DNA of 64,000 nucleotides. Source: Deltaproteobacteria bacterium (GTDB lineage Bacteria > Myxococcota_A > Polyangia > Nannocystales > Nannocystaceae). How positions within the stretch are numbered: the stretch's first letter is position 1; each line of letters starts with the position of its first letter. Below are positions 19,339 through 42,134 of the stretch, piece after piece. The stretch spans positions 1,987,630 to 2,051,629 of the forward strand of contig JADJEE010000012.1 of the NCBI GenBank assembly GCA_016709225.1, written 5' to 3'. The position numbers and the translations under genes were made by a program. The notes beneath the pieces were generated by a model. The model had not been told where the DNA came from. It was given only the letters and a program-made list of their open reading frames with translations, and did no database searches.

Positions 19339-19582
19339 CTACGCCCGCGAGGTGATGCCACGATGCATGCGCGCGAAGATGTCGCGCCCGCAGCTGCGAC
19401 CTTCCCTGCCGACAGTCGCAGGAGAGACCGTCGAAGGACCTTGCGGTCGCAGCGACGCAGCTCGACCGGTCGATCGCGCGGGGCACCGCCGAGTTCCGCG
19501 ACGCACTACGACATTCGGCCGCTGCGCTGCCCGCGGTCGTCGTGCTCGGCCTTAGCACGCTTGGCGGACACCCGAGAACAGA

Positions 19583-19723
19583 CTACGGACCACGGGCGAC
19601 AGCCCGCTTCATGACGCCGTCCAGCCCGTCCCACGTCACCCGCAGCAGGCGCGCAACGCCCGAGATGCCGGCCTCGTTCAGCCAGTCGATCACGAGGCCT
19701 CGAAGATCATGGATTTGCGGCTC
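19583..19723 (-). pseudogene. Possible IS630/Tc1-like transposase N-terminal HTH remnant
   Basis: …IHDLRGLVIDWLNEAGISGVARLLRVTWDGLDGVMKRAVARGP* follows the DLRxRV..EAGxSxxxAAxxFxVSxxxxxRWxxR..G pattern of IS630 transposase N-termini, but is truncated after about 45 aa. Confidence 0.3.
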
Positions 19724-20000
19724 CCCGGGAGAATTCGTGGGTCGATCGCAGCGTTGCGTGAGGCCGAGTTGTCGGTCCTGCCCCCGTCGTCCCCCTGCAC
19801 GGGACCCGAGCCGCGGGCCGATTGGCCAATCGTCAGACCACACGAGCGAGTACGATCTTTCCTCACGACTTACGGAAGAACCATCTACTCTCGACCTACG
19901 GCAGGCCGTTGTAGTCACCGTGTCCCCTCGCTCGGCCAAAAGGCCACTAGTCAGCAGCTTGCGCGTACGCTCGAATCGGAGCATTGAACGACCCAATTGA

Positions 20001-20030
20001 CTTGACGCAGTCCCAGAACCCCGCTAGATA
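20001..20030 (+). promoter_or_regulatory. Candidate sigma-70-like promoter upstream of the first Cys-rich secreted paralogue
   Basis: TTGACG, 17-bp spacer, TAGATA. Confidence 0.3.
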
Positions 20031-20072
20031 TGCACTACGCATGTGGCTCAGGCAGCAAGGACATCCCACGCA

Positions 20073-20561
20073 ATGCGCAAACCAACCCTGGGCGGCCATA
20101 TGAATCGCAGATCGTGTATAGCCATTCTGTTTGTTGCTGGGTCGGGACTAGGCCTTGCGCTTCACCCTACGACTTGGTCGTTTGCGATGGCTGAAACCCC
20201 GCGCAATTCGCCCGTCCCGGCCCCCTATTCGAAGAGCGGGGAAGCAGAGGTCTCGCGCGCAAGCGCAACTGACACGCTGAGCTCGTGCACATGGGAAACC
20301 TTCAGCAGCACAACATCGGCTCTCGTCAATGCGGCGTGTCCGATACCTGCCAAGCGCGTAATCTCCGGCGGCTGCATCAGTAGCGCCTCGGGGCGCAAAC
20401 TGATTTGGATGCACCCATACGAGGAGGCCGCAATTGGGTCGCTTCCACTGCCCGACAACGGAGAGTGGTGGCACGCAACCGACGGCAACACAGGCTGGTC
20501 GTGCAACTTCTCCTCGTCTGGGACTACGAATACCGCGCTGGCGCTTTGTTGCGGCACCTAG
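20073..20561 (+). CDS. Small secreted Cys-rich protein, paralogue 1 of 3 in tandem. I could not place it in any family I recognise. C-terminal LCCGT.
   Basis: Signal peptide MRKPTLGGHMNRRSCIAILFVAGSGLGLAL (alternative ATG at 20100). Three conserved blocks: SCTW…S..TS, CP….ISGGC, and W…NTGWSC.F … ALCCG. Lower GC than the backbone. Confidence 0.55.
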   Translation: MRKPTLGGHMNRRSCIAILFVAGSGLGLALHPTTWSFAMAETPRNSPVPAPYSKSGEAEVSRASATDTLSSCTWETFSSTTSALVNAACPIPAKRVISGGCISSASGRKLIWMHPYEEAAIGSLPLPDNGEWWHATDGNTGWSCNFSSSGTTNTALALCCGT

Positions 20562-20646
20562 TTGCAATCAGCGTAGTCAGCCACTACGGATCGCGTCTGC
20601 CAGAAGGCGCTGAAAGACGATCAGCACAGTGAACACACGGACAACA

Positions 20647-21210
20647 ATGAGTCTTGTAGCCGGCGCCGGGCTTGCGTTGTTTCTGCTAGTCGGAGCAGGA
20701 GTGGCGGGCGCTCAGGCCGAGATCACGAACTCTGCCGACAACTATTCACCCCGTCTCAATGACGGGACTGTTGGGGATGGCCGCGATGGCCGCAGCAGCA
20801 ACACGCCAGCGGCCAACACCGACGAACTTCGCAGCGATGCAGTCGCGGTGCTCGCAGACTCGACTGACCATCTAAACAGTTGCGGCTGGCGTACGACCAG
20901 CGCATCGTGTGACTGCATCACGAATGATTGCGGAGCACTTCCGAATCACTGTGGGTACACGGTTGCATGCCCGGTTGGAGAGGCGGCAATCTCCGGCGGC
21001 TGCCGAATTTCGGGCGACTCAAGCGTCGAACTTCTTTCAAGTCGTGTGTATTCAAACTCGTCACCACTTCAGCTACTATATGCGACTGTTTGGTGGGGAG
21101 TGAGCGCAAATACTGGCTGGAGCTGCGAATTTGACAACGTAGACACGATGCCTTCCGGTTGGCCGCCAGTGTTTCCTACGATTGAAGTCACGGCGCTTTG
21201 CTGTGGATAG
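20647..21210 (+). CDS. Small secreted Cys-rich protein, paralogue 2 of 3. C-terminal ALCCG.
   Basis: Signal peptide MSLVAGAGLALFLLVGAGVAGAQA, with a GTG 18 nt upstream as an alternative start. The same blocks are present: SCGW, CPVGEAAISGGC, NTGWSCEF, ALCCG*. Confidence 0.55.
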   Translation: MSLVAGAGLALFLLVGAGVAGAQAEITNSADNYSPRLNDGTVGDGRDGRSSNTPAANTDELRSDAVAVLADSTDHLNSCGWRTTSASCDCITNDCGALPNHCGYTVACPVGEAAISGGCRISGDSSVELLSSRVYSNSSPLQLLYATVWWGVSANTGWSCEFDNVDTMPSGWPPVFPTIEVTALCCG

Positions 21211-21248
21211 CACGTCCAAGGTCCTCATCGCGAATAGGCATATACGTC

Positions 21249-21731
21249 ATGGCACCAGTGCATCTTTCCAAAGGCCGGCCAGGTCGGGGACACCACTTTC
21301 AGCTTGTCTTGCTGTTCCTGTGCTCCGCAAGTTGCTCTTCGTTGGACCAAGGCGACGATAAGCCTATTCCGGCGACCCCGAACGATGACGACGGAGATAG
21401 CGAATCGGCCGACGACGATGAAGCCGTGGAACGGGCAGGGGCGTCCGATGAATTGGACACTTGCTGGTGGGTAGCATCACCGAATGGTGGCACGTCGGTC
21501 GGCACCGACTTTACGGTGAACTGCCCGGCGTCAAGACGGCCAATTGCAGGCCATTGCATGCACACCGGCTCCGCGCAGCTAACGGATTCACACCCGTTCG
21601 AAGCGAGCAATGCATCGAATCTCCCAGAAGCTGGGGAGTCCTGGTACTCGACTAGTAGCACGGCGGGATGGCGCTGCGCTTACGACGCTTCGGTGTCAGC
21701 ACAGATCGGCGTACTTTGTTGCGGATCATAG
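21249..21731 (+). CDS. Small secreted Cys-rich protein, paralogue 3 of 3. C-terminal VLCCGS.
   Basis: The listed start is a TTG that overlaps the stop of paralogue 2; the ATG at 21249 (MAPVHLSKGRPGRGHHFQLVLLFLCSASC…) gives a signal peptide. Blocks: TCWW, CPASRRPIAGHC, TAGWRCAY, VLCCGS*. Confidence 0.55.
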   Translation: MAPVHLSKGRPGRGHHFQLVLLFLCSASCSSLDQGDDKPIPATPNDDDGDSESADDDEAVERAGASDELDTCWWVASPNGGTSVGTDFTVNCPASRRPIAGHCMHTGSAQLTDSHPFEASNASNLPEAGESWYSTSSTAGWRCAYDASVSAQIGVLCCGS

Positions 21732-22203
21732 AAGGCTCGCTGTCCTGACTCTGGCGTTCGCAGGAACACATGATTTTGCGTTGGCGGGCGTCCGTGATAC
21801 GCTTGCCGTGACGCGCCGCGCGGGTGACTATGTGGCACGGGATCTCGTCCAGGCAGAGGTGCTCTGGATCGTCGGTGTGTTCGCGATCAGCGAACTGTGA
21901 TTGAGGCGGAGGTCGTCTCGTTCGTTCGCTCCCGGGTCGACTCCGCGGCTCCGCCATCGCGAACTCGCGGGTGTGCACGTTGGTGCGGTTGCCAGGTCGG
22001 GTCCACCTGGATCGACTTCGTGTGCTGATTCAGAGATTCGCGGGAGAAGCCGCTGCGCGCGCAATGCGCGAGCAGTGGTGCGCGATGGAGGCGAGGATGT
22101 CGTCGGCGCTCTTGGTCCAGGCGGACGGCTTCGGCTCGTCGTTGGTGCAGTGTCCGTGCGCCGGACCGCGTGCGTGGTTGAAGCAGCCGCGGGGCTTCCC
22201 GGT

Positions 22204-23810
22204 TCAGCCGCGCGCAGACTTCCAGCTCGCCGGCAGTAGATCTGCCGCGTCGGCCTCGCGGACGCGCCGCGAGAGCCGAGCGAGCACGTCGGTGAGGTAC
22301 GCGACCGGGTCGACGTCGGCGAGCATGCAGCAGCCGAGGATCGTGTACACCGCCGCAGCTCGGACGCCGCCGGCATCCGAGCCCGCGAAGAGGAAGTTCT
22401 TGCGGGTGAGTGCGACGCGGACATGCATGCGTTCCACGGCACCGTTGTCGAGCGGGATGTCTGGATCGTCGAGGAACCGGAGCAGCGCGTCTTGGTGGTT
22501 GAGCACGTATCGGATCCCACCGCCCATCGGTGACTTCGGCGGTTCGAAGGGTTGGTGCGTCTCGCACCAGCGGATCAGTTCGCCGCAGACTGCCGCGCTC
22601 TTCGTGGCGCGCTCGGCGTGCCGCGCTTCGCGATCGAGACCGCGGATCTCGTCTTCGATCTGGTACAGCACCTTGTACGCCGAGACCGGCAGCGAGGCGC
22701 GATCGTCTCCGGCCTCGAGCGCGGCGACGAACTTCCGACGTGCGTGCATGTTGCACCCGCACTCGATGATGTCGTCGCGCGCGAAGCTCTTGTCGAAGAG
22801 CGTCGCAGCGTCCGCGACCGTATAGCCCTTGCGCAGCCTCAACAGATCCTCGGGACCGATCTCGCCTTCGCGCTGCCCGACCTTCTTGCCGGTGCTCGCG
22901 TAGAAGTAGAACGCCGAGTCGTCGCCGACGCAGCCCCACAGCGAGCCGATTCGCTTGCCCGTGCCGACGCGCTTGTTGGTGCCATCGCGGTCGAGCACCG
23001 GCAGACCTGTGCCGTCGATATGCATGATCTTCGCCGCGAGCGTGCGCTCCTTCGCGGCGCGCACGAGCGGTGCCAGCAGCTCCGTCGCCCACGTCACCTG
23101 ATCGGCGAGCGTCGACACCGATAGCTCGACACCGAGACGCGCGAAGCGATCGCGCTGCCGATGCAGCGGCAGGCCATCGCGGTACTTCTCGACGAGCAGA
23201 TTGGCGACGAGCGCACAGCCCATCCGTCCGCCCTGGACCACCTTGTCGCCCAGCGGCGCGCGCACGACCTCGGCCTCGCAGTCGTCGCACGCCAGCTTCT
23301 CGCGGCTGTCGACGCGTATACGATCACCTCGGCCGGGATCAAGTCGAGGATCTCGGTCGTGTCGTGCCCGATGCACCGCCGCTCCTTGCCGCATCGCGGG
23401 CACGGCCGAGCAGCGGTCGGCACGACGATCGGGTTCGGAATCCGCCGCAAGTTCGCCGGCAGCGGGCGGCGAAGCGGCGGCTGAGGAGGCGCCGGCGTGC
23501 CTCCGCGCGCCGCAGGTGCGACCTCCTCGCTGGTCTCGCGCAGCTTCTGATCCGCTGCGTCGCGGGTCGCGTCGCCGGTGCTCGCGAGGCTCTCGAGCAG
23601 CAACGCGAGCTGAGCCGTCGACACGCCCTCGTTCGTGCGACGAGGTGAGCGAAGCTCGGCGAGCTTGCGTTCGAGCTCGCTGTTGCGGGCAACGAGCTTC
23701 GACACGAGCTCGAGCACCGTGTCGAGCTGGCCCTTGTCGAGCAGCTCGCGAAGCACCTCGAGCACGGGGGCGCGCTTCGTCGTCGTGCTTGCCGATCCCG
23801 TCTTGCTCAT
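22204..23810 (-). pseudogene. tnpC: IS66-family transposase TnpC, with the reading frame split by a single-nucleotide frameshift near 23335
   Basis: The N-terminal leucine zipper and zinc finger (…CPRCGKERRCIGHDTTEILDLIPAEVIV) are in one frame (ORF 23094..23948). The rest (…IRVDSREKLACDDCEAEVV…DGLPLHRQ…DDPDIPLDNGAVERMHVRVALTRKNFLFAG…) is in the -1 frame (ORF 22204..23850). The junction is gaggtgatcGtatacgc. Confidence 0.75.
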
Positions 23811-23898
23811 GCCGACGTCGACACCATAGCGGCGTCCGGCGCCGCGGCAACCGAAAATCATCGCACGCCCGCGTGTGGTTGCGCGCGGTCGCCCGGCA

Positions 23899-24267
23899 TC
23901 ACGCGCGTGCGTGCATCGGCGGCTCCCATCGACGTGACGCGCGAGCACGTGTGATGTCGATGCCCTCGAGTAGCATCGAGAGCTCGTGCACGTCGATCTC
24001 GACCGTCGACACCTCTTCGGCCACGCGCTGTGGAAACGTGAAAGTGCCCCGCTCGAGCCGCTTGTGCACGATCGTGAAGCCGCCGCGCGTGTACACCAGA
24101 AGCTTCACCTGGGTCTTGCGCCGGTTGAGGAAGACGAAGACGTGCCCGCTCAGCGGATCTTGCGCGAGCACGCTGCGAACGTCGGCACTCAGCCCGTCGA
24201 ACGATCGCCTCAAGCTCACCGGCGACGTCGCGACGTACACCTTCACTGCCCGCAGCAGCAGGATCAC
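23899..24267 (-). CDS. tnpB: IS66 Orf2 (TnpB)
   Basis: VILLLRAVKVYVATSPVSLRRSFDGLSADV…DPLSGHVFVFLNRRKTQVKLLVYTRGGFTIVHKRLERGTFTFP. GTG start that overlaps the TGA stop of tnpA (GTGA). Confidence 0.8.
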   Translation of the reverse strand: MILLLRAVKVYVATSPVSLRRSFDGLSADVRSVLAQDPLSGHVFVFLNRRKTQVKLLVYTRGGFTIVHKRLERGTFTFPQRVAEEVSTVEIDVHELSMLLEGIDITRARASRRWEPPMHARA

Positions 24268-24614
24268 GTCTTCGGCCTCAAGGTGATCATCTCCGAGACG
24301 AGTTGAGCGAGCCACTGTGCCGACACACGATCGGCGCGCACCTCGATCTCGACCTCGCCGACGTGCACCACGACCTCGGCCACCACCGCCGGCTCGGACG
24401 CCAGCATCGGGACGAACTTGACCGCGCCGCGCGTGCCCTCCGTCGCGACGCGCCGCTTCCACCACCGCAGCCTCCCGCTGCCGAGCTCATGCCGCCGCTC
24501 GAACTCCGCGAGCGTCAAACCACTGCGCTTCCACGCGCGAACTGCTGCGCGGCCATCGGCCGTCGTCCATCGCACCCCGCTCGCCGGCGCCGTCCACTCG
24601 CTCCCGCGTGACAT
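24264..24614 (-). CDS. tnpA: IS66 Orf1 (TnpA, HTH)
   Basis: …WKRSGLTLAEFERRHELGSGRLRWWKRR… pattern of IS66 Orf1. The ATG at rc 24614 lies inside the 73-bp duplicated segment. Confidence 0.7.
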   Translation of the reverse strand: MSRGSEWTAPASGVRWTTADGRAAVRAWKRSGLTLAEFERRHELGSGRLRWWKRRVATEGTRGAVKFVPMLASEPAVVAEVVVHVGEVEIEVRADRVSAQWLAQLVSEMITLRPKT

Positions 24615-24961: not shown

Positions 24962-25372
24962 TCAGATTTGCTCGAGGCAGGAGGCCGGCGGAGAGAGTCT
25001 CTCGAACCCGAGCTCGCCACGTGCAGAGGTCAGCTCAGCCACGATGGTTGAGTGTGGGACTTGCGCCATGCGCCCTACCATAAAGCCACGGTAGTTACGC
25101 ACAGCTTCACGTGGGGTCAGTTGGCCGAGAGTGCCGGACGAGACCCACTCCGCCGTGAGGACGTCGATCGCGAGCGCGGTGGCCTCCGACTTCGGCGGCG
25201 CAGGCACGTACTGCGATCGGATCTCAGCCACGCGTCGGGCGTCGAGAGTGTAGGTGCCGACTCGAGCGACTGAGCAGTCCTCGCCCTCAGACGGACCGGG
25301 CGCCGGACCAGGAACCGGGCCTTTGCACGCCGGGCAGATCACGATCAGCAAGGTGAGGAAGTAGCGTTGCAT
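24962..25372 (-). CDS. Small secreted or lipoprotein (136 aa), tightly coupled downstream of the S8 protease. Possible cognate inhibitor or chaperone.
   Basis: MQRYFLTLLIVICPACKG signal peptide. AGGAGG sits 6 nt before the ATG, and the start is 10 nt after the protease stop. Lower GC. Confidence 0.6.
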   Translation of the reverse strand: MQRYFLTLLIVICPACKGPVPGPAPGPSEGEDCSVARVGTYTLDARRVAEIRSQYVPAPPKSEATALAIDVLTAEWVSSGTLGQLTPREAVRNYRGFMVGRMAQVPHSTIVAELTSARGELGFERLSPPASCLEQI

Positions 25373-25381
25373 GACATCCTC

Positions 25382-27868
25382 CTAATCACCGCCGCCATCA
25401 GGCTCATTGTCCACTTCAGACGTGGCCATGCAGAAGACATGAACAACCGCAGACCCCGAACTACTCACCCATTCTTTGTCGACGGTCACCTCGACGCACG
25501 TGTCCTCCACGTTGACCAGCGAGTCCTCGAACGCTACCATTTTCTTGTGATCGTGATCAGCGTTGATGCGCGTGTAGCTAGGAGTACCGTAGCCGACCGC
25601 GCAGGTGCCATTCCCCTGCTTCGGGCGCAGGCGCAGCTCGAGATCGATGCGACTGATGTTGTCCTTTCCGGACATGTCCTCGATCGCCATCATGACGCAC
25701 TTGACCTCTTCGGTGCCCGTTGCAACAGGGCCACCAAAGGCGATGTATTGCTGGTCTGCGGTACCACTGGTGAATGTGTAGGTGTTGTACGAGAGCGCAC
25801 CTCCCGCAAAGCTCGGCGAGCCGTTCGAAAGCAAGCGGAGCTTCGCTCGTCCGAGACCAAAGAGGTTGTCCGCACCCACGACGTTCTTCGTTCCCGAGCT
25901 GTTGCCCCGGTCACCCATGCCGAGCATCACCGTGTGCAAGCGTCCCACGTTCGAGATCCACGTTTGGCCATCGTTCAGACCCCAGTCCTTGACGAGAGCC
26001 GCCATCCCGGCAACAGCCGGCGCGGCAAAACTCGTACCGACCCACTGCCCGGTGCTCACGCAGCCGTTGGTGCCGGAGCCCGAGGTTACGTAGTTCACGT
26101 AGGCAGATGGCGCCGCGAGGTCTGCCATGGACAACGCCCCGCCCACCGTCGTTCCGTCCGGCGACTGGATAGACCCACCGCCGCGACTCGCGTAGGTGTC
26201 GTCGATATCCATGACCGAGTACAACGTGTCGTCCGTGCTGAGCCCGTTGACCGAGAAGGTCTTGGGAATGTCCGCAGGGCTGGACATGTTGCACGACGAT
26301 CCCGTCGTGCCGTTGTTCCCCGCCGATACCGCGATGAAGATGCCGTCGTCGAACGCGCCCTCGTAGGCGTCCTCGAGATCATAGCTCGAAGTCGCGTCAC
26401 AGGTGGCGTTCGGATACGAATCACCATCATTCCAGCCGTTGCTACTGCTGATGATGCTCGTGAGATAGCAACTACCCGGACCGGATGGCGTGAGCTCAAT
26501 GTCGATGCCCTGAAGGCAACTCGTTGACATCACGTGACGGCTCATCAGGGTGCTACCCTGGTGATCGAAGAACTGAACGACCGCCTCCTTTCCGTAGCCG
26601 CTCGCCGAGTTCTCCCACGAGGCACTGTGGTTCGTGGTGCTGTCGCAAACCGTCAAGCCTTGAGCCTGATCCTGGGTGTAGTCGCCGACAGCGATGGAGG
26701 ACACGACGGTGCCGTGGTTGACGTTCGAGGCCTCCGAGTAGTTGGCTTGTGAGTAGCTCTCACAGTACTCAACCCAACACTTCCACCGGCCAAGGAGCCG
26801 TTCAGTCTCGCATCCACTGTCGTCGTCAAAGAAGCACGCTTCGTCATTGAAGTGCCACTGCTCTTGGATGCCGATCGTGATTTGTCCCGCACCGTTTTCA
26901 GCGTTGAATCCGGCGTCGATGTACGTCTGAGCGTCAGTGTAGGAGCGCGAATCTCGATGGATTCCGATCGCGCGGCTGCCGTGCGACTGAAGACCAACGT
27001 CGTCGAGATCGATCTTCGTGATGTCTTCGCGCGCCTGCAGCTCCTCCAACAGGCCCTTCGAGACAGAAGCGCCTAGCCACCCCGTGGTCCAGTGATAGAC
27101 GCGGATCGTTCCGCCGCTTTCCACGATCTGTGCTGCCAATGACGACGACCGCTCCAAAAATGCTTCCTCTCGCTCGGCCAGCGCGACTTCGCGCTGTTCG
27201 ACCGCGGCAGCATACGTCTCTGCGCTCCACATCCCCACCTCAGGAAGTAGCGGAACATCCCAATCGGGGGCACCCCGCAACTTGATCAGCACGTCGAGGG
27301 AGTCATCCGGTCCAGCTTCCTCGGCCGCAGCGAGGAGGGTAGGACGCACCACGAGAGGCGCATCGTCGGATGGTTCCGCAGGCGGGTCGACGTTTGGAAC
27401 TCGAGTCACCCGATAGGTGTCGGTGCGCGTGCCTTCCGCGTCCACGACCGACGTTACCGTCTCTTCGTACAGGTACTCGTCCTGTAGGTGCGTATAGGGA
27501 CGCGAGACCTTCCGCCAGGTCTCAAGGTCCAGCTCACCGACCTCCGTTGACGAGACCATCTCGCCACTTTCGTTCTCTACGAGAACCTTCTCGTACACCA
27601 ACTCGCGTCCAGCATTAGCTGCGTCCGGATCTCGTACTTCGGTCTCGACATCGCCAGCACCGCCCGAGCTCCCTTCCTCAATCTCATCCGCGGGGAGGAC
27701 TTCCGAGCGTGGGCTATGCAGCCCTCCCTCGGCACTGTCGACGGGCGCTCGGTCATCGCAGGCGGGCGCGAGAGCCAATGTGGATAGAGCCCACATGCGA
27801 CGCAGGCACGTCCAGCGGTTCGCACGGGAATTGCCAATCGCAACAAGCTTCTTCGCCGAGGTTGACAT
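25382..27868 (-). CDS. Subtilisin-like serine protease (S8) with a long N-terminal pro-region, 829 aa
   Basis: His motif NVNHGTVVSSIAVG and Ser motif GTSFAAPAVAGMAALV. Signal peptide MSTSAKKLVAIGNSRANRWTCLRRMWALSTLALAPAC. GGAGA ribosome-binding site before the ATG at rc 27868. Lower GC than the backbone. Confidence 0.85.
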   Translation of the reverse strand: MSTSAKKLVAIGNSRANRWTCLRRMWALSTLALAPACDDRAPVDSAEGGLHSPRSEVLPADEIEEGSSGGAGDVETEVRDPDAANAGRELVYEKVLVENESGEMVSSTEVGELDLETWRKVSRPYTHLQDEYLYEETVTSVVDAEGTRTDTYRVTRVPNVDPPAEPSDDAPLVVRPTLLAAAEEAGPDDSLDVLIKLRGAPDWDVPLLPEVGMWSAETYAAAVEQREVALAEREEAFLERSSSLAAQIVESGGTIRVYHWTTGWLGASVSKGLLEELQAREDITKIDLDDVGLQSHGSRAIGIHRDSRSYTDAQTYIDAGFNAENGAGQITIGIQEQWHFNDEACFFDDDSGCETERLLGRWKCWVEYCESYSQANYSEASNVNHGTVVSSIAVGDYTQDQAQGLTVCDSTTNHSASWENSASGYGKEAVVQFFDHQGSTLMSRHVMSTSCLQGIDIELTPSGPGSCYLTSIISSSNGWNDGDSYPNATCDATSSYDLEDAYEGAFDDGIFIAVSAGNNGTTGSSCNMSSPADIPKTFSVNGLSTDDTLYSVMDIDDTYASRGGGSIQSPDGTTVGGALSMADLAAPSAYVNYVTSGSGTNGCVSTGQWVGTSFAAPAVAGMAALVKDWGLNDGQTWISNVGRLHTVMLGMGDRGNSSGTKNVVGADNLFGLGRAKLRLLSNGSPSFAGGALSYNTYTFTSGTADQQYIAFGGPVATGTEEVKCVMMAIEDMSGKDNISRIDLELRLRPKQGNGTCAVGYGTPSYTRINADHDHKKMVAFEDSLVNVEDTCVEVTVDKEWVSSSGSAVVHVFCMATSEVDNEPDGGGD

Positions 27869-28633
27869 GCACAATTCTCCAGACCGGTGTTTCGGTCGGT
27901 TCGTCGGTACAGATCGTTGCCACGCCGCGCACATGTCCGCGCGCGGTGGCCCAGATTGGCCAAAACTCTGCGGCCGAGCATACGGCCGATTGGGCAGATG
28001 TGTCAACCGATGATTTTGCGTCAGAAGTATGAGTTCTTTACTCGGCGTCTAGCCGGGTCTAGCCGGACAATTTGCGGCGTCGGCAATGCAACACGGTTGG
28101 CATCGTTGGGTGTCAAAGTGACGCTCTCCGGGAGAATAGTCGCGCGGTTTCCGTACGCTGCGCACCTTCGCCAGCGCTGAACCAAGGCGAGGTAAGGAAG
28201 AGACCAGCGTGATGCTTCAATAATTCGCCGGCGGCCGGGGAGCGAGCGCCACCGACCTTTCAGCTCCTGTGGCACGCTACGTCCGAAGTGGGATGGCAAC
28301 GTCGCAGACGTCGTGGACGACACCAGGCGGCTCACCGCGATCGCGATTGCCCCCCTCGTCTCTCGGCCGGTGCGCATTCACTGGTTGTGCAGCTCGGCAG
28401 GAAGTCAGTCAGAAGGAAGACAGCGAGCGCTCCGTGTAGAAGCTCACAAGTGGCCATTGGATCACTCGGCTTGGACCTCAACACCGGTTACCGGGGGCCT
28501 TGAGCTACTGCTCGTCTTGCCGTGGAGGCCGTTCCCCTGGGAGAGAGTTCGTGGGCGGTCGGGTAGATCGTCGAGTAGCGACATGAGGACCGAGGGCGCG
28601 CAGCCACCCGTGTCGATGTCGCGAATCTGTGAC

Positions 28634-28658
28634 AGGCGCACCAAGCGCAGCGCTTCGC
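28634..28658. promoter_or_regulatory. Perfect 11-bp inverted repeat (caagcgcagcg-ctt-cgctgcgcttg) about 50 bp upstream of the Cys-rich lipoprotein gene. Candidate operator.
   Basis: Seen directly in the sequence, inside an 840-bp lower-GC intergenic region between divergent genes. Confidence 0.3.
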
Positions 28659-28708
28659 TGCGCTTGGCATACCTGGACATGACGTGGCGGTGGTGGCATG
28701 CTCAGCGC

Positions 28709-29224
28709 ATGGCAAGATTGTGGTCGCATCCAGCGACTTCGTTTGTTTGTCTCCTATCACTGAGCTGTTCGGACCGGAAAGGCGGCGATGAGGGCGTGGC
28801 GTCTAACACCGCCTCAAGCTCGGACGGGGATGGCGAGAACGGGAACTCCGAGGGTTCTTCCACGACGAGCGAAGCACTCGGGGTCGAGGATTGCGAAGGT
28901 CTCCTTGTCGAGGCCGACTGCAACAACGCCATGCTCGCCGATGTTGGCCAATGCATGTGGGTCCCGAGATACGCACCGGCGCCCGGCGTGACAAGCTGCG
29001 GAGCACAAGACGCAACGGAGGCGTGCGTTGGAATCATCGGTAGTCAGCAGGGATGCGGGCTGTATTCTTGTCCTGGCGATGAAGGCGTCAATATCTACTA
29101 TCGACAAGCAGATGGCGGAATTGAACTGTTCGTCAGCCCTCTGTGCGGCCCGGAACCTGTCGGGGGGTGGATGGCGTGCCAGGCAAACATCCCCGAGTGT
29201 TCTTGTCCCTGCTCTGCTAATTAG
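28709..29224 (+). CDS. Cys-rich lipoprotein, paralogue A
   Basis: MARLWSHPATSFVCLLSLSCS signal peptide. Conserved core C.GI.G.QQGCGL..C…..LY.R…..E.F.SP.CGPEPVG.W.AC……ECSC.C shared with the next gene. Confidence 0.6.
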   Translation: MARLWSHPATSFVCLLSLSCSDRKGGDEGVASNTASSSDGDGENGNSEGSSTTSEALGVEDCEGLLVEADCNNAMLADVGQCMWVPRYAPAPGVTSCGAQDATEACVGIIGSQQGCGLYSCPGDEGVNIYYRQADGGIELFVSPLCGPEPVGGWMACQANIPECSCPCSAN

Positions 29225-29231
29225 GAGGCAT

Positions 29232-29666
29232 ATGAAGCGCGCATGCCTGATCCTGCATGTTACCTTGCTGGGAGTGACAGCCTGCACCCAGACTGAGCTT
29301 GAAGACTGCGAGAAGATTCAGCACGAGTCAAAATGTGAAGATGCCGATGTTGATGGCGCGGGTGCCTGTCATTGGGTCGAGGCCTATCGGCCGTCTGTGT
29401 CGGAAACCGCATGCGAAGTGGGCGAGCCGACCGGCTTGTGCGTCGGCATCGGAGGCACCCAACAGGGCTGCGGTCTCTTTGGGTGCGAGCCAGGGTCCGA
29501 AGATGAATCGGCGAACCTCTACTTCCGCCATGATGGCCCGCAGGTCGAAGTGTTCGGCAGCCCAGAGTGCGGCCCCGAGCCAGTCGGCGATTGGACCGCT
29601 TGCTCGAGCGCCGACGCGCCGGCCGAGTGTAGTTGTCTGTGCGGCGTCGCAGAGCCGCCCTCGTAG
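29232..29666 (+). CDS. Cys-rich lipoprotein, paralogue B
   Basis: AGGAGG ribosome-binding site. MKRACLILHVTLLGVTAC lipobox. Same Cys framework as paralogue A. Confidence 0.65.
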   Translation: MKRACLILHVTLLGVTACTQTELEDCEKIQHESKCEDADVDGAGACHWVEAYRPSVSETACEVGEPTGLCVGIGGTQQGCGLFGCEPGSEDESANLYFRHDGPQVEVFGSPECGPEPVGDWTACSSADAPAECSCLCGVAEPPS

Positions 29667-29730
29667 GGCCGGCGCCGCTAACTTACGATGCGGCATGTGT
29701 CAACGAGAATGAGATTTTTGGGTTGAGAGT

Positions 29731-30797
29731 TTAGTGAAGTCCGAGCTCGCTCTCCGAGCGATTCTCGGGTGGGTTGATCCAGACTGCCTTGGGGAGCGTG
29801 GGCACCTGCGGTGGGCCTGCGACGAAGCGCTCTGGGTTCTTCGCGAAGGCTTCGTTCATCACGAGCTGGCGCTGCGCGAGGACCTCGGTGGCGCGCCCGA
29901 AGAAGACGTCGGCGGGAGTGAGGCGAGCGATGCCGGAGTGCCGGTGCTCGTCGTTGTACCAGGCGAAGAAGCGCCGGCAGAAGTCGCGCGCGTGGTCGAA
30001 GCTCTCGAAGCGCTCCGGGAAATCTGGGTGCGACTTGAGGGTGTGGAACTCGGACTCGGAGTGCGGGTTGTCGTTGCTGACGCGCGGTCGGCTGAACGAC
30101 GCCGTGATCTCGAGGTCGCGCAGCAGCTGCTTCACAGTCTTGCCCCTGGGCACGGGCCCGCGGTCGGCGTGCAGCTTGAGCGTGCCCGGTTCGATCCCGT
30201 GGCGGTTGCACGCCTCGCGGATCAGCTTCGCCGCGAGCTCGCCGCTCTCCTCGTGGGCGAGCATCCAGCCCGGGTTGTAGCGGCTGAAGAGATCGATGAT
30301 CACGTACAGCGGGTAGTAGGTGTACTTCACCGGACCGCGCAGCCACGTCACGTCCCACGTCCAGACCTGGTTGGGTGCCGTGGCGATCAGTTCGGGTCGC
30401 GCGTACTTTGGGTGCCGGGCTTGATCGCGGCGCTCGCGGATCTCGTCCTGCAGCGCCAGAATCCGATACATCGTGCGGGGATGGCAGAGGTAGTGCTGCT
30501 CGTCGAGCAACGTGGCGTGCACGGTCGCCGGCGCCTTGTCGACGAAGCGCTCGGAGTGGAGCACCTCAAGCACGTTGGTCCGCTCGGCTTCGGAGAGCGC
30601 GCGTGAAGGTCGTCGACGTGGTCGGCGGGGGGCCATGCAGGGGCCGGCTGCCGCCAGCGGTACGCAGTGCTCCGCGGCACGCCGAGCGCCTCGCAGGCGA
30701 CCGCCACGCCGAGCTGGTCCGCGAGTTCGTCGACCGCTGCCTTCACGTCGGCTCCTCGGTGTCGTCGCTGTCCAGCCCCAACACCTCCGAGAGTTTT
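29731..30797 (-). CDS. IS3-family transposase OrfB (DDE integrase core), expressed as an OrfAB fusion by -1 frameshifting
   Basis: …VWTWDVTWLRGPVKYTYYPLYVIIDLFSRYNPGWMLA…HADRGPVP…WYNDEHRHSGIARLTP. The upstream part of the listed ORF is out-of-frame junk. Confidence 0.8.
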
Positions 30798-31150
30798 TTT
30801 TGGACCTCGATGATCTTCTCGGCCTTGCGCAGCTTCTCGCGCAGGCGCTCGTTGTCACGCCGCAGCTTCTCCAGCTCGGCCTGCTCCGCCGTCTGCTTCG
30901 GCTTGGGTCCGCGTTTGCGCTCCAACGCCTTCAACGTACCCTCGAGCCTCTGCCCGCGCCAGCTCGTGAGGTGCGACGAGTACAGGCCCTCTCGCCGCAG
31001 CAGTGCGCCCACTTCGCCCGGCTTCGTGCAGGCGTCGGCATCCTGCAGCACGCGCAGCTTGTACTCCTTCGTGAAGCGCCGCCGATGCGCTCTCTCTCGG
31101 GTCTCCGTCTCGACCTTCCGTGGGTTCGCGCTCGATGTCATTTCGTACAT
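30743..31150 (-). CDS. IS3-family transposase OrfA (HTH plus leucine zipper)
   Basis: MYEMTSSANPRKVETETRERAHRRRFTKEYKLRVLQ…LEKLRRDNERLREKLRKAEKIIEVQKKLSEVLG. Ends just after the slippery site. Confidence 0.8.
   Translation of the reverse strand: MYEMTSSANPRKVETETRERAHRRRFTKEYKLRVLQDADACTKPGEVGALLRREGLYSSHLTSWRGQRLEGTLKALERKRGPKPKQTAEQAELEKLRRDNERLREKLRKAEKIIEVQKKLSEVLGLDSDDTEEPT
30794..30801 (-). promoter_or_regulatory. Programmed -1 ribosomal frameshift site: A AAA AAA heptamer, seen as T8 on the plus strand
   Basis: OrfA frame reads …GTC CAA AAA AAA CTC…; the OrfB frame continues at -1. Confidence 0.6.
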
Positions 31151-31452
31151 GGTCCCTCGCGCCCCTCAGTAAATTCCGGCTCGGCAGTGTCTCATCCCTC
31201 GTTGGCACAGGGGGCGCGCTGCTCGACTGGGTACGCGCCGGGGCTCCGGACGCAATGAAGGAGCGTGAGGTCGAGCAGGCCGCGGTTCTGCTCGAGCGCG
31301 TCCTCAACCAAGAGACCGAGCCCGAGCCCGGCCGACCAAGACGAGTACAGACCCGCAGGGGCGTCGCTGGCGTCGCTGAACACCGCGTCTGCGACCCGAA
31401 CATGCGCCACGGCCGAAAAATGCCGCTCACACGCCTTCAACGGCTACAAGCG

Positions 31453-31733: not shown

Positions 31734-33647
31734 CTACTCTCTTCGCGGACGTCGCAGAGACCAACCGAGCGCCAGCCCACCGAGCGCGAGAACGAGGCCC
31801 TCACGACCCTCGCCGGGCTGGTTGCACGCGCAGCCGGCCGGCGAGTCCATGTTGATGCTCGGATCGCCCGTGCTCGACTCGTCGGCGTCGCCGCCCGAGC
31901 TGTCCGACGGCGTGCCGGTCGGATCAGTCGTGGTGCCGCCTTCGCCACCCGACGTGTCGGCGCTCTCGACGTGCTTGATTTCGACAACGATAGGGTCGCT
32001 ATACGCGTCGTTTGGGCCGTCGAACACCCTCGCGCCGAAGATGTACGTGCCCTCGGGGATGTTCGTGACGTCGTAGTCGTACGGCGCCTCGAACAGCTTG
32101 AAGTACGGCTTGGGCTGATCGTCGACACCGACCACCTGCACGTAGAGCTCGACCTCGGTCACCAGGCGATCGTCCATCGCCTCGACGTTGATCGTGAAGT
32201 CGCTGCCGGGCTCGAAGATCGCACCGTCCTCCGGGTAGGTGATCGCCGCGGTCGGCGGCGAGATGTCGAGCGGCCACGGCTCGGCCGAGCACTCGAGCGA
32301 GCCGATGTTGCCATCGGCCATCTCGGGCGAACCGCCGTCGCGGCAGGTCGGCGAGCCGCTGCCACCGTCGGGGAACTGCACGTCGATGACCGCGTGGGTG
32401 CCGAGCATGTCGACGACGGTGAACGACACGTTGCCGGTCGGGTCGGTGTACGAGTCGCCCGGCTGCATGAAGTAGCCACCGTCGCTGGCGGCCTCGAGGA
32501 TGTACGGCGACGGCGAGTAGTCGTAGCTGCTCGACAGGTGCAGGAACACGCCGTCGAGACCAGCGTCGACGCCGATCGACTGACGGTACTCGAGGTAGTA
32601 GAAGCGACCGTCGCCGGAGGCGAACTCGAGCGCCTGGGTGCCGTTGCACGGCAGCTCGGTCGGCAGCAAGTTGAAGGTGCCGCTGGTCTCGGTGTTGACG
32701 ACGTTGCAGCCCTCGAGCCAGCCCATGTAGGCCTTCTGCGCCACGTTCATGTGATCGCAGCCGCCGCCCATCGGGTCGTGCGGATCGCCGTACTCGACGT
32801 GCTCGCACTCGCCGTCCATGGTCGGCGCGATCACGCCGGCGGGGCAGTCGTACGAGTGCGAGTGGCCCATGCCGTAGTTGTGGCCGATCTCCTGCGCACG
32901 CACGACGCAGCCGAGGTTGCCGTTGTACCAGCTGTTGCGCGCCGGGGCCTCGACCGAGCCGAGGGTGGCAAGCCCGCCCCAGCCGCACGGCAGGCTGGGA
33001 TAGAAGGCCCACATGTACTGCTTGTACTCGTCGGGATCGTGGCCGTGGTCGACGAACGCCTGCAGGCCGCGATCGGCGATCACGTCGGCGTAGCAGTCAC
33101 CGGGGTCGTCGATCTGGTAGGGGCCGAACACGTCGCCCGCGATGGTCTCCTTGCCGTAGGAGTTCTCGCCGTAGAACACGTTGGTCGAGTCGCCGGCGAT
33201 GAACATGTCCTGGGTGACGGTGCCGTTGTTGGGACCTTGGTTGGCCGGGTTCCAGAACAGCAGCACGGTCGCGATGCGACGGTAGGTGTACTTCTCGGGA
33301 TCGATGAGCGGCTGCGGCGGCAGTGCCAGCACCTCGAGCTCGTCGATCTCGTAGGTCCGCTCGTCGAGCGGCTCGCCCCACACGCGCACGAAGGTCTCGT
33401 AGGCGAGGTCTTGCTCGACCTCGCCGGCGAGCTCGAAGACGCCGTCGGGCGTCTGCACGTGATGGGTGATGCGCGCAGTGCCGTCGTCCATCGACGCGAT
33501 CCGCTTCTCGTACTTGCCCTCGATCGACCCGGCCGTGATGATGCCCGAGCGCGACAGCAGCTCGTCGCCGGGGCTGTCGCCTTGCTGGCATGCGGGCAGG
33601 ACCAGGGCCGTGAGGGACAGTGCAGGGAGCAGGCGGCGAAGGGACAT
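31734..33647 (-). CDS. Secreted zinc metalloprotease (HExxHxxGxxH metzincin-type) with a C-terminal MYXO-CTERM sorting signal
   Basis: HEIGHNYGMGHSH. Signal peptide and lipobox MSLRRLLPALSLTALVLPAC. The C-terminus GCACNQPGEG-REGLVLALGGLALGWSL-RRPRRE is the Myxococcales MYXO-CTERM pattern. GGGGAGGGA ribosome-binding site before the ATG at rc 33647. Confidence 0.8.
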   Translation of the reverse strand: MSLRRLLPALSLTALVLPACQQGDSPGDELLSRSGIITAGSIEGKYEKRIASMDDGTARITHHVQTPDGVFELAGEVEQDLAYETFVRVWGEPLDERTYEIDELEVLALPPQPLIDPEKYTYRRIATVLLFWNPANQGPNNGTVTQDMFIAGDSTNVFYGENSYGKETIAGDVFGPYQIDDPGDCYADVIADRGLQAFVDHGHDPDEYKQYMWAFYPSLPCGWGGLATLGSVEAPARNSWYNGNLGCVVRAQEIGHNYGMGHSHSYDCPAGVIAPTMDGECEHVEYGDPHDPMGGGCDHMNVAQKAYMGWLEGCNVVNTETSGTFNLLPTELPCNGTQALEFASGDGRFYYLEYRQSIGVDAGLDGVFLHLSSSYDYSPSPYILEAASDGGYFMQPGDSYTDPTGNVSFTVVDMLGTHAVIDVQFPDGGSGSPTCRDGGSPEMADGNIGSLECSAEPWPLDISPPTAAITYPEDGAIFEPGSDFTINVEAMDDRLVTEVELYVQVVGVDDQPKPYFKLFEAPYDYDVTNIPEGTYIFGARVFDGPNDAYSDPIVVEIKHVESADTSGGEGGTTTDPTGTPSDSSGGDADESSTGDPSINMDSPAGCACNQPGEGREGLVLALGGLALGWSLRRPRRE

Positions 33648-34039
33648 GCTCCCTCCCCATATCATCCTTTGCGGGCGCTCGCAGCGGCTTTGGGCGGGCG
33701 TGGCGAGGACAGGCTTTGTCGCCGCGCGCAAGCGGGTCCGCGCGTGGGTGCACGCACGATCGAGCGTCCGGAGAGCGCACGCCTCGTCGTCGGACCCGAG
33801 CGTCGCGGACCGACGGCGCGCGCCTGCATGCCGTGCGACAGCACACGATTGCCGCACGCGCGAGCCCGACCCACGCGTGCCGTGCTCGCGCCCGCCGATG
33901 CTGTGCGCTGCGGTCTCGCGGCTCCACGCGTGTGAGCCGATCGCGACGATCACACGCGCAGCCGTGCGGCTCCACACTCGCGACGTGACACGCGCGATGT
34001 CTTCGCGCGCGAGGTTCCTTGCTAGCTTCTTCGACGACG

Positions 34040-35725
34040 ATGCACGACGTTGCCAAAGGTGCAGTGCTCGCACCTGTAGAGTTCGAAGTCGAGCCCAGCC
34101 ACTACCACCACTGGAAGGTCAGCTACGACGGTGCGATCGCACGCGTGGCGATGGCCGTCGATCCGGCGGCGCCACTTCGCGACGGCTACGAGCTGAAGCT
34201 CAACTCGTACGACCTCGGCGTCGACATCGAGCTGGCCGACATCGTGCGTCGCATGCGATTCGAGCACCCCGAGGTGCGCGCGGTGGTGCTGACCTCGGGT
34301 AACGACCGGGTGTTCTGCGCCGGTGCCAACATCAACATGCTCGGGCTCTCGAGCCACGCGTGGAAGGTGAACTTCTGCAAGTTCACCAACGAGACCCGCT
34401 GCGAGATCGAGGATGCGACCGACGCGAGCGCGCAGGTGTGGCTGGCCGCATGCAACGGCACCACCGCCGGCGGCGGCTACGAGCTCGCGCTGGCCTGCAA
34501 CGAGATCTATCTGCAGGATGACGGCAACTCGGCGGTCAGCCTGCCGGAGGTGCCGCTGCTGGGCGTGCTGCCCGGCACCGGCGGACTCACGCGGCTGGTC
34601 GACAAGCGCAAGGTCCGTCGCGACCGCGCCGACGTGTTCTCGACCACCGCCGAGGGCGTGCGCGGCAAGAAGGCCGTGCAGTGGAACCTGGTCGACGCGG
34701 TGTTCCCCCGCTCCAAGTTCGACGAGAAGGTGCTCGAGCGCGCCAAGGCCGTCGCCGACAAGGCCGCGGTCGGGCTCGCGCCGGGCGAGCGCAAGGGCGT
34801 CGCGCTCGGCAAGCTCGCACCCGAGATCACCGACAACGGCCGCCGCTATCGCCACGTCGCGCTCGAGTGGGACGACACCACCCGCGTGGCCAAGCTGACC
34901 GTCGCAGGCCCCACCGCCGACGACGTCGCGGTGGTCGAGCGCGGCGGCGAGGCCATGCGCACGGCCGGCAGCGATCTGTGGTCGCTGCGTGCGTGGCGGG
35001 AGCTCGACGACGCGCTGCTGCACCTGCGCGTCAATCACATGCAGGTCGGGCTGGTGATCGTGCGGACCACCGGCGACCTGCAGCAGACGCTCGCCCACGA
35101 CGCCGCGCTGGTGAAGGCACGCGAGCACTGGTTTGCGCGCGAGGTGCTGCTGCACATGGGCCGCGTGCTGCGGCGCTTCGACAACACCAGCCGCTCGTTC
35201 TTCGCGTTCGGCGACGCCGGCACCTGCTTCGCCGGCTGTCTGCTCGAGCTCGCGCTGGCCTCCGATCGCTTCTACATGCTCGAAGACGAGGACCACCCGG
35301 TGCACGTCGCGGTCTCGGAGCTCGAGGAGGGCGCGCTGCCGATGCACACCGGCCTCACGCGGCTGCAGACGCGCTTGCTGGGCACGCCTGCGCAGCTCGA
35401 GGAGCTGGTCGGCAACCGCAGTCCGCTCGACGCCGAGGCGGCCGACGACGCGGGCCTGGTGACCGTGCGACTCGACGGCATCGACTGGGACGACGACACC
35501 CGCATCGCCATCGAAGAGCGCGCGAGTTTGTCGCCCGACGCGCTCACCGGCATGGAACAGAACCTTCGATTCCCCGGTCCCGAGACGCCCGACAGCAAGA
35601 TCTACGCGCGCCTCACCGCGTGGCAGAACTGGATCTTCATCCGTCCCAACGCGACCGGCCCGGCCGGCGCACTCACCCTCTACGGGCGCCCGGAACGGCC
35701 CCAATTCGACTGGCAGCGCGTGTAG
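34040..35725 (+). CDS. boxC: Benzoyl-CoA-dihydrodiol lyase (BoxC), an enlarged crotonase-fold enzyme
   Basis: About 560 aa. The crotonase motif VFCAGANINMLG is present, and the protein is immediately followed by BoxB. Overall organisation and length match BoxC. Confidence 0.7.
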   Translation: MHDVAKGAVLAPVEFEVEPSHYHHWKVSYDGAIARVAMAVDPAAPLRDGYELKLNSYDLGVDIELADIVRRMRFEHPEVRAVVLTSGNDRVFCAGANINMLGLSSHAWKVNFCKFTNETRCEIEDATDASAQVWLAACNGTTAGGGYELALACNEIYLQDDGNSAVSLPEVPLLGVLPGTGGLTRLVDKRKVRRDRADVFSTTAEGVRGKKAVQWNLVDAVFPRSKFDEKVLERAKAVADKAAVGLAPGERKGVALGKLAPEITDNGRRYRHVALEWDDTTRVAKLTVAGPTADDVAVVERGGEAMRTAGSDLWSLRAWRELDDALLHLRVNHMQVGLVIVRTTGDLQQTLAHDAALVKAREHWFAREVLLHMGRVLRRFDNTSRSFFAFGDAGTCFAGCLLELALASDRFYMLEDEDHPVHVAVSELEEGALPMHTGLTRLQTRLLGTPAQLEELVGNRSPLDAEAADDAGLVTVRLDGIDWDDDTRIAIEERASLSPDALTGMEQNLRFPGPETPDSKIYARLTAWQNWIFIRPNATGPAGALTLYGRPERPQFDWQRV

Positions 35726-35782
35726 TCGACCCACGGTCGGACCACACCAAGTGCACGCTCACAAGGAAGAGACCCGCACACC

Positions 35783-37204
<1,422 letters not shown>

Positions 37205-41869: not shown

Positions 41870-42134
41870 CGGTGTTCCCCTGCGAAGCCCCGGCGCGTGC
41901 GACAGGGGCGGTCTTGGCGGTCGCGGTGCAGAGTGCGCCGCGATCGCATCCGAGAATAGCAGGCGCACGGGTGCGAAGCTGCCAGGGCGCAGGCGTACAG
42001 CATCGCGGGGTGCCGCGGTGGGCCGCTGCGGGCGCGATCGGCGGCCCTACGACGACGATCCCGAGACGAGCGCGCAGATCCCCGCTTCGCGAAGGACTCG
42101 CCGCGACGGCACCATGCATCGACGTCGATTCGTG

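Follow-up and report, generated by a model that had tools for sequence, protein, structure and literature searches.

The window, by which we mean the whole stretch of 64,000 nucleotides analysed here, holds two adjacent genes for small cysteine-rich lipoproteins, flanked on the left by a divergent S8 (subtilase) peptidase gene and on the right by an IS3-family element (Table 1). The original prediction had placed the pair between the protease and the IS3 element, and two adjacent ORFs of 171 and 144 residues are indeed found there; the coordinates given for gene 1 hold, and the start of gene 2 moves by one nucleotide (29232, not 29233). An AGGAGG motif, read earlier as the ribosome-binding site of gene 2, is also present, merely 3 nt ahead of the ATG.

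Table 1. Coordinates of the features at the two-gene locus; the last two rows refer to the metagenome scaffold L139, all others to the window.
Feature	Position	Strand	Remarks
IS66-family element	22204-24614	-	TnpA-like ORF, TnpB_IS66, DDE_Tnp_IS66; left edge of the low-GC cassette
Accessory protein	24962-25372	-	136 aa; 9 nt downstream of the S8 gene; signal peptide ends ...ICPAC
S8 (subtilase) peptidase, divergent	25382-27868	-	828 aa; signal peptide ends ...LAPAC; transcribed away from gene 1
Perfect inverted repeat, 12+3+12 bp	28641-28667	.	42-68 nt upstream of ATG 28709
Gene 1	28709-29224	+	171-aa 12-Cys lipoprotein; start uncertain
Gene 1 signal peptide, lipobox	28709-28768	+	...LSLS-C20
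Gene 1 Ser/Gly/Asp-rich tether	about 28769-28882	+	
Gene 1 12-Cys domain	28883-29212	+	
AGGAGG, Shine-Dalgarno-like	29223-29228	+	overlaps the gene 1 stop codon; 3 nt 5' of the gene 2 ATG
Gene 2 (P0001)	29232-29666	+	144-aa 12-Cys lipoprotein
Gene 2 signal peptide, lipobox	29232-29285	+	...GVTA-C18
Gene 2 12-Cys domain	29298-29642	+	
IS3-family element	29696-31209	-	right edge of the island; orfA + orfB (rve); Pfam rve / HTH_Tnp_1 on L004
L139 S8 gene	1510-3948		
L139 204-aa accessory gene	3932-4546		signal peptide ends ...HSVAC

The two proteins had been described as paralogous, and BLASTP aligned them with 49% identity over 115 residues (E=1e-31), far beyond chance. The core quoted for them, CVGI.G.QQGCGL..C ... 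CGPEPVG.W..C ... ECSC.C, was found in both. They are cysteine-rich, as claimed, with a higher count than the 10-12 residues reported: both contain 14 Cys, of which 2 belong to the signal peptide and 12 to the mature domain. The proposed lipobox is likewise present at both N-termini. They pass a PROSITE PS51257-style rule (basic n-region, uncharged h-region, [LIVMFWSTAG]2-[LIVMFYSTAGCQ]-[AGS]-C, with the Cys at 15-35) at Cys20 in gene 1, where the h-region is weak (LWSHPATSFVCLLSLS), and at Cys18 in gene 2. The two products are thus predicted Sec/SPII lipoproteins that would be processed by the Lgt-Lsp pathway.

The start of gene 1 is uncertain. The public gene call uses ATG 28583 and yields a 213-aa protein (P0003), and since third-position GC in the gene 1 frame remains raised back to about 28500, a start at this ATG, upstream of the palindrome discussed below, is possible. 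The architecture of the family favours ATG 28709, from which the lipobox Cys is residue 20. Among expression signals, no sigma-70-like promoter was found on the plus strand upstream of gene 1, and the sole plus-strand terminator-like site (28722-28738) falls within the gene. There was no Rfam match in 27800-29750, and neither gene 2 nor the cassette S8 peptidase had a plasmid match.

The divergence between the two genes is deep. Synonymous sites are saturated (pS 0.82, with pN 0.34), and the pair is therefore ancient. Gene 1 is no closer to its neighbour (44% identity) than to homologues from elsewhere (44% to P0005, 43% to P0007). Every homologue locus retrieved carries a single copy, and the family HMM detects exactly two members in the window (E=1.1e-34 for gene 2 and E=7.6e-30 for gene 1). 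Single copies elsewhere and old divergence imply that the tandem consists of two old paralogues that were joined, an arrangement particular to this organism. Genes 1 and 2 are thus old paralogues side by side and not a recent duplication. The comparison of gene 2 with a 69%-identical homologue in locus L007 gave a dN/dS of 0.32, which indicates that gene 2 is under purifying selection. Contigs L001-L006, obtained from other samples, match the window without a difference over 1701 nt (100% identity); they represent the same strain and are thus uninformative on conservation. Genes 1 and 2 are genuine, selected genes.

The original prediction recognised no named family and pointed to profile searches and structure prediction as the way to check this. 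Pfam, NCBIfam, PADLOC and PDB sequence searches with both proteins and with family profiles indeed returned no significant match. DUF2380 was considered and rejected: gene 1 reached only 10.7 bits (E=0.36, against a gathering cut-off of 26.3), gene 2 had no match, and a single one of 33 family members matched weakly. Gene 1, gene 2 and a 36-sequence alignment, used as queries in word-indexed protein searches, found beyond themselves only P0002 (the 69%-identical homologue of gene 2), P0036 and P0037. Scans of genome contigs with patterns derived from the alignment yielded no family match, and a DNA pattern for P.CGP.P.G.W..C gave at least 120 matches in genome contigs, none of the matches listed being real by hmmsearch. 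The word-indexed searches being nearly empty, the family became visible only because an exhaustive HMMER profile search was run over 1.84 billion cluster representatives. This search recovered 38 proteins at E<=1e-3 (17 at E<=1e-10), of which P0025 is a spurious repeat protein and P0026 and P0039 are apparently frame-shifted. No characterised family was matched. A literature search on cysteine-rich lipoproteins of Nannocystaceae found nothing relevant. The family is rare and so far undescribed.

The other matches are small proteins of 124-246 aa that share one architecture: a signal peptide with a lipobox Cys, an optional Ser/Thr/Gly/Asp-rich tether and one domain of about 115 residues. A lipobox-like Cys follows the hydrophobic N-terminus in 37 of the 47 retrieved sequences, and most of the remaining 10 are N-terminally truncated or have over-extended start calls. 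The domain contains exactly 12 Cys in 29 of 33 sequences, spaced C-x8-C-x9-16-C-x11-15-C-x8-9-C-x9-10-C-x4-C-x22-31-C-x9-15-C-x4-16-C-x-C-x-C. Further near-invariant features are C-x-W, G-C and C-G with a Trp ten residues later; genes 1 and 2 fit this motif set (C-x-W, G-C, C-G-P-x-P-x-G-x-W). A cluster member close to P0007 is GenBank MBC8067757.1, from a "Nannocystaceae bacterium", and thus from the Myxococcota. Ser/Thr kinases and ECF sigma factors abound at the homologue loci, a pattern that we take to fit this phylum as well. At one of these loci (L134, 6533-8489), P0020, a family member, begins 2 nt downstream of the stop codon of a gene for a sigma-54-dependent response regulator (Response_reg, Sigma54_activat, HTH_8). 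A second assembly shows this arrangement too, and the two genes may be co-transcribed.

With an alignment of three sequences, AlphaFold gave an unusable model (pLDDT 48), and the 33-sequence domain alignment was used instead. The result was confident (pLDDT 85.2, pTM 0.78, all five models at 80 or above). The modelled domain is alpha/beta, with three short helices and four main strands: two short helices lie at the N-terminus, a hairpin (74-89) is found among the strands, and the C-terminal helix bears the C-x-C-x-C motif. The loop 55-72 of the domain, around the C-x4-C pair, has low pLDDT and is the most sequence-variable part, acidic and Gly-rich. No structural neighbour of the model was found in the PDB, nor any likeness to known inhibitors, potempins and the Streptomyces subtilisin inhibitor (SSI) included. 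Because the cysteines (about 10% of the residues) are even in number and invariant, an export signal is present and the modelled fold is regular, we infer that the domain contains six structural disulfides. That these proteins form a family of lipoproteins built on a disulfide-bonded module is, as a joint claim, highly probable.

The gene pair lies in DNA of unusual composition. GC content between 25 and 30 kb of the window is 0.60-0.62, against 0.69 overall, and third-position GC (GC3) is 0.63 in gene 1 and 0.70 in gene 2, against about 0.9 in host genes. The cassette is bounded by mobile elements. The IS3 element has imperfect terminal inverted repeats (TGTGTCAACGAGAATGAG / CTCATCCCTCGTTGGCACA; TGTGTCAACGAG... 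and ...CTCGTTGGCACA at the two ends), from which its bounds were set, and no clear 3-bp target-site duplication was found. Since several contigs of the same organism (L001, L002, L003, L005 and L006) end exactly at this element, it is suggested to be multi-copy in that genome. GC content falls to 0.59-0.60 a second time beyond the IS66 element on the left (window 19500-22000), in a stretch with three ORFs that had no Pfam match (20043-20561, 20629-21210 and 21198-21731); this stretch may be part of a larger island of about 19.5-31.2 kb. On the other side, the minus-strand gene at 31734-34073 is host-like (GC3 0.89) and encodes a gametolysin-like metalloprotease (Peptidase_M11) that also contains a Big_7 domain. 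The protein ends in a tail (…GCACNQPG…hydrophobic…RRPRRE) similar to a MYXO-CTERM sorting signal, and no NCBIfam match was obtained for this tail. Next to it, on the plus strand (33989-37204), BoxB, the benzoyl-CoA 2,3-epoxidase subunit B (TIGR03225, E=1.7e-211), is encoded after a gene of the enoyl-CoA hydratase family, as part of an aerobic benzoyl-CoA (box) pathway cluster.

The intergenic spacer between the S8 gene and gene 1 measures 840 bp, as had been reported, if the S8 start is 27868 as in the public gene calls (27869-28708). It is low in GC relative to the window (0.59-0.63 versus 0.69); as a special property of the spacer the low GC did not stand, being typical of the surrounding 25-30 kb island. 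The spacer shows no similarity to other loci. A 118-aa minus-strand ORF is publicly annotated within it (28021-28377; GC3 0.67) and, because it has no Pfam match and a weak coding signal, is probably spurious. We also considered the spacer as a decayed tyrosine-recombinase gene, the minus strand across the palindrome reading AKRSEALRLVRLSQIRDIDTGG; no ORF gave Pfam support at E<=10, and this candidate was rejected.

The palindrome upstream of gene 1 (CCAAGCGCAGCG ctt CGCTGCGCTTGG) is perfect, as described, with arms of 12 and not 11 bp; the distance of about 50 bp to gene 1 was roughly right, the repeat ending 42 nt before ATG 28709. The original prediction had named its conservation upstream of homologues as what would point to a regulator-binding site, and its absence there as a refutation. 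We regard an operator, bound by a dimeric transcription factor of genes 1 and 2 or of the divergent S8 promoter, as quite unlikely. A perfect repeat with a 3-nt spacer, unique in the window and set between divergent genes at 42-68 nt ahead of the ATG, would suit such a site. However, the palindrome is absent upstream of all ten homologues examined, the orthologous L139 cassette described below included, as is any comparable inverted repeat, and it was found in none of the fetched loci except the same-strain contigs, so that the idea of a conserved site finds no comparative support and fails by the condition set in the original prediction. Nor does any regulator gene adjoin. Moreover, first-order Markov simulations predict 0.43 perfect inverted repeats (arms of at least 12, loop of at most 8) per 64 kb, and the palindrome on its own is statistically not compelling. 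It would lie inside coding sequence if gene 1 starts at 28583, and an RNA structure would explain it equally well: the transcript would form a 12-bp GC-rich hairpin (-45 kcal/mol in a 101-nt context, z=-2.1) which, having no U-tract, is not a classical intrinsic terminator. The palindrome is strain-specific and lies outside the conserved anatomy of the family; a 5'-UTR hairpin, a local operator or chance could each account for it. In L007, an imperfect palindrome with 21-nt arms (CGATCAACGAGTGCGTTGCAACGGACTCGTGGATCG, 683-718) precedes the closest homologue of gene 2 by about 200 nt, and its sequence is unrelated to that of the window palindrome.

The chief new result, which like the age of the pair and the single copies elsewhere was not part of the original prediction, is the linkage to the peptidase. 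On the ENA metagenome scaffold L139, one strand encodes in succession an S8 peptidase of 812 aa, a 204-aa lipoprotein and the family member P0005. The S8 peptidases of the window and of L139 are 58% identical over 815 residues, and the 136-aa accessory protein of the window is 34% identical to the 204-aa lipoprotein (E=1e-22). Two organisms thus share a linkage of these three gene families, although in the window the S8 block has the opposite orientation to the 12-Cys genes. In L139 too, the cassette (GC 0.57-0.58, GC3 0.59-0.66) differs from the flanking L25 and Uma2 genes (GC3 0.89 and 0.84). The cassette is compositionally foreign in both places, and apparently mobile. Scans of metagenome contigs for further S8 orthologues, by alignment and with the pattern HDHKKMVAF, found none.

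The cassette S8 peptidase is itself very divergent: its Pfam match is limited to the His-to-Ser part (E=1.3e-10), and phmmer at 1e-3 gave no match in the PDB. The His (NHGTVV) and Ser (GTSFAAP) motifs are present. At the place of the catalytic Asp motif, usually v-v-D-t-G, both orthologues read T-I-G-I-Q-E-Q, and the acid residue may, on the basis of this alignment, be Glu or be located elsewhere. The accessory protein had no Pfam or PDB match. A second S8 gene, mycosin-like, lies 10 kb from the cassette (39965-42046, minus strand; TIGR03921, E=1.3e-60, below cut-off), so that S8 genes are frequent in this genome.

Two other family members have protease neighbours: in L137 an unrelated 650-aa S8 peptidase is encoded directly downstream of P0027, and in L010 a trypsin-family protease directly upstream of P0037. 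Peptidase adjacency was thus observed in the window (divergent), L139, L137 and L010, and no protease was present within two genes in seven of about twelve homologue loci. As the window and L139 have to be treated as a single evolutionary event, these cases amount to only two or three independent linkages. The statistics are therefore weak, and p~0.05 for chance adjacency is a rough estimate of our own, not a computed value. The neighbouring 546-aa proteins of L136 and L137 proved unrelated.

Several known groups of proteins invite comparison. SSI (MEROPS I16) and the Kazal and Bowman-Birk inhibitors are also small and secreted; disulfides stabilise their scaffolds of about 50-115 residues, and serine proteases are their targets. 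The 12-Cys domain, in contrast, matches them neither in sequence nor in fold, has far more predicted disulfides and lacks a recognisable reactive-site loop. With DUF2380, DUF4215 and the Myxococcus cysteine-rich repeat it shares occurrence in Myxococcota, export and richness in Cys. Unlike these myxobacterial modules, it is a single non-repetitive unit of 115 residues, and it matches no Pfam or NCBIfam repeat family. The closest known system, as an analogy in working principle, would be that of the potempins, outer-membrane lipoproteins of 98-132 residues encoded beside the peptidase that they inhibit, a subtilase among them (PMC9890683). In the KLIKK-peptidase/potempin system of Tannerella forsythia, their proposed role is to protect the outer membrane of the producer (PMC9890683). 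The likeness would lie in small lipoproteins encoded beside a secreted peptidase, a subtilase in the case of PotC and mirolase, and in the presence of several diverged paralogues. Potempins are OB-folds or eight-stranded up-and-down beta-barrels, whereas the predicted 12-Cys structure is alpha/beta and matches none of them; the relation is thus one of analogy, not of membership.

From these elements, a role may be proposed. The 12-Cys lipoproteins would be exported by Sec and lipidated, and, once in the oxidising envelope, the domain would adopt a compact alpha/beta fold with six disulfides; stapled in this way, it would presumably resist proteolysis. Tethered to the membrane beside the co-encoded subtilase, it would act as the partner of the protease, most likely by binding it tightly as a guard or inhibitor and so protecting the envelope of the producing cell, like a potempin, and less likely as a substrate or pro-protein set free by it. 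With two diverged copies, two specificities would be available. That these lipoproteins are a disulfide-locked envelope partner of the subtilase, for example a potempin-like guard or a substrate, is a serious possibility that we advance tentatively, and we hold the functional coupling to the protease with the same caution. It draws on the conserved linkage of S8, accessory and 12-Cys genes in L139 and on the protease neighbours of P0027 and P0037; on the other side, seven of about twelve homologue loci lack a nearby protease, S8 genes are frequent in this genome, and the low GC that these genes share could mean mere hitch-hiking in one mobile block. An inhibitor specifically is unlikely; the model has no fold likeness to any known inhibitor and the variable loop 55-72, acidic and Gly-rich, is not an obvious mimic of a subtilase substrate. 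A bolder version, which we also consider unlikely, would make the domain a new fold class of membrane-tethered peptidase inhibitor directed against the G-I-Q-E-Q subtilase, carried with it as a mobile low-GC "protease plus antidote" cassette among high-GC Myxococcota, the two copies again corresponding to two specificities.

The proteins may instead be stand-alone envelope lipoproteins that take no part in proteolysis and serve in ligand or surface binding, in adhesion or as structural components, their adjacency to S8 reflecting nothing but a shared, horizontally moving low-GC block. This is quite possible, if somewhat doubtful. Most homologues have unrelated and mutually different neighbours, among them a sigma-54 activator, a GreA-like protein, FTHFS, ferritin, kinases, a Na/H exchanger, GH26 and radical SAM proteins, and the composition of the cassette, atypical in both hosts, together with its position between IS66 and IS3 in the window, would agree with joint transfer. 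However, the S8, accessory and 12-Cys genes are still linked at 58%, 34% and 44% protein identity in spite of an inversion of orientation, and two additional, independent protease adjacencies exist. The domain could also be cargo: a signal, toxin or adhesin module, for instance, anchored as a pro-protein until the adjacent protease releases it by severing it from tether or lipid. In gene 1 and many relatives, a long Ser/Thr/Gly/Asp-rich linker separates the lipid-modified Cys from the domain, which would suit this reading, disulfide-rich domains survive outside the cell, and the protease adjacency in L139, L137 and L010 would be accounted for; but the linker is only 3-5 residues long in gene 2 and about half of the family, and no toxin or signalling family was matched, so that we find this very unlikely.

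A last alternative concerns the cysteines themselves, which could form metal-thiolate clusters, as in metallothioneins or copper-storage proteins, in place of disulfides. Twelve invariant Cys and a terminal C-x-C-x-C would be in keeping with such a function. Metallothionein-like proteins have about 20-30% Cys in C-x-C/C-C clusters and little regular secondary structure, and are cytoplasmic or metal-loaded. We rejected this identity for the 12-Cys domain on account of its Cys content of about 10%, its confidently predicted regular secondary structure, the signal peptide and the absence of any match to a metallothionein or other metal-binding family or structure. Exported lipoproteins would moreover fold in an oxidising compartment, and the even number of invariant Cys, their modest proportion and the confident alpha/beta model fit structural disulfides, which makes metal binding highly improbable.

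The 12-Cys family is no major surprise, as uncharacterised Cys-rich lipoprotein families are common in myxobacteria, and it does not establish a new biological principle. Whether or not the coupling to the protease is real, it defines a clean, very rare domain whose fold is predicted with confidence and has no known structural neighbour; this domain could reasonably be proposed as a new Pfam entry and as a target for structure determination. Should the coupling exist, the pair would represent a second, structurally unrelated case of the potempin principle, in the predatory and protease-rich Myxococcota, and the domain would be a new disulfide-rich inhibitor scaffold.
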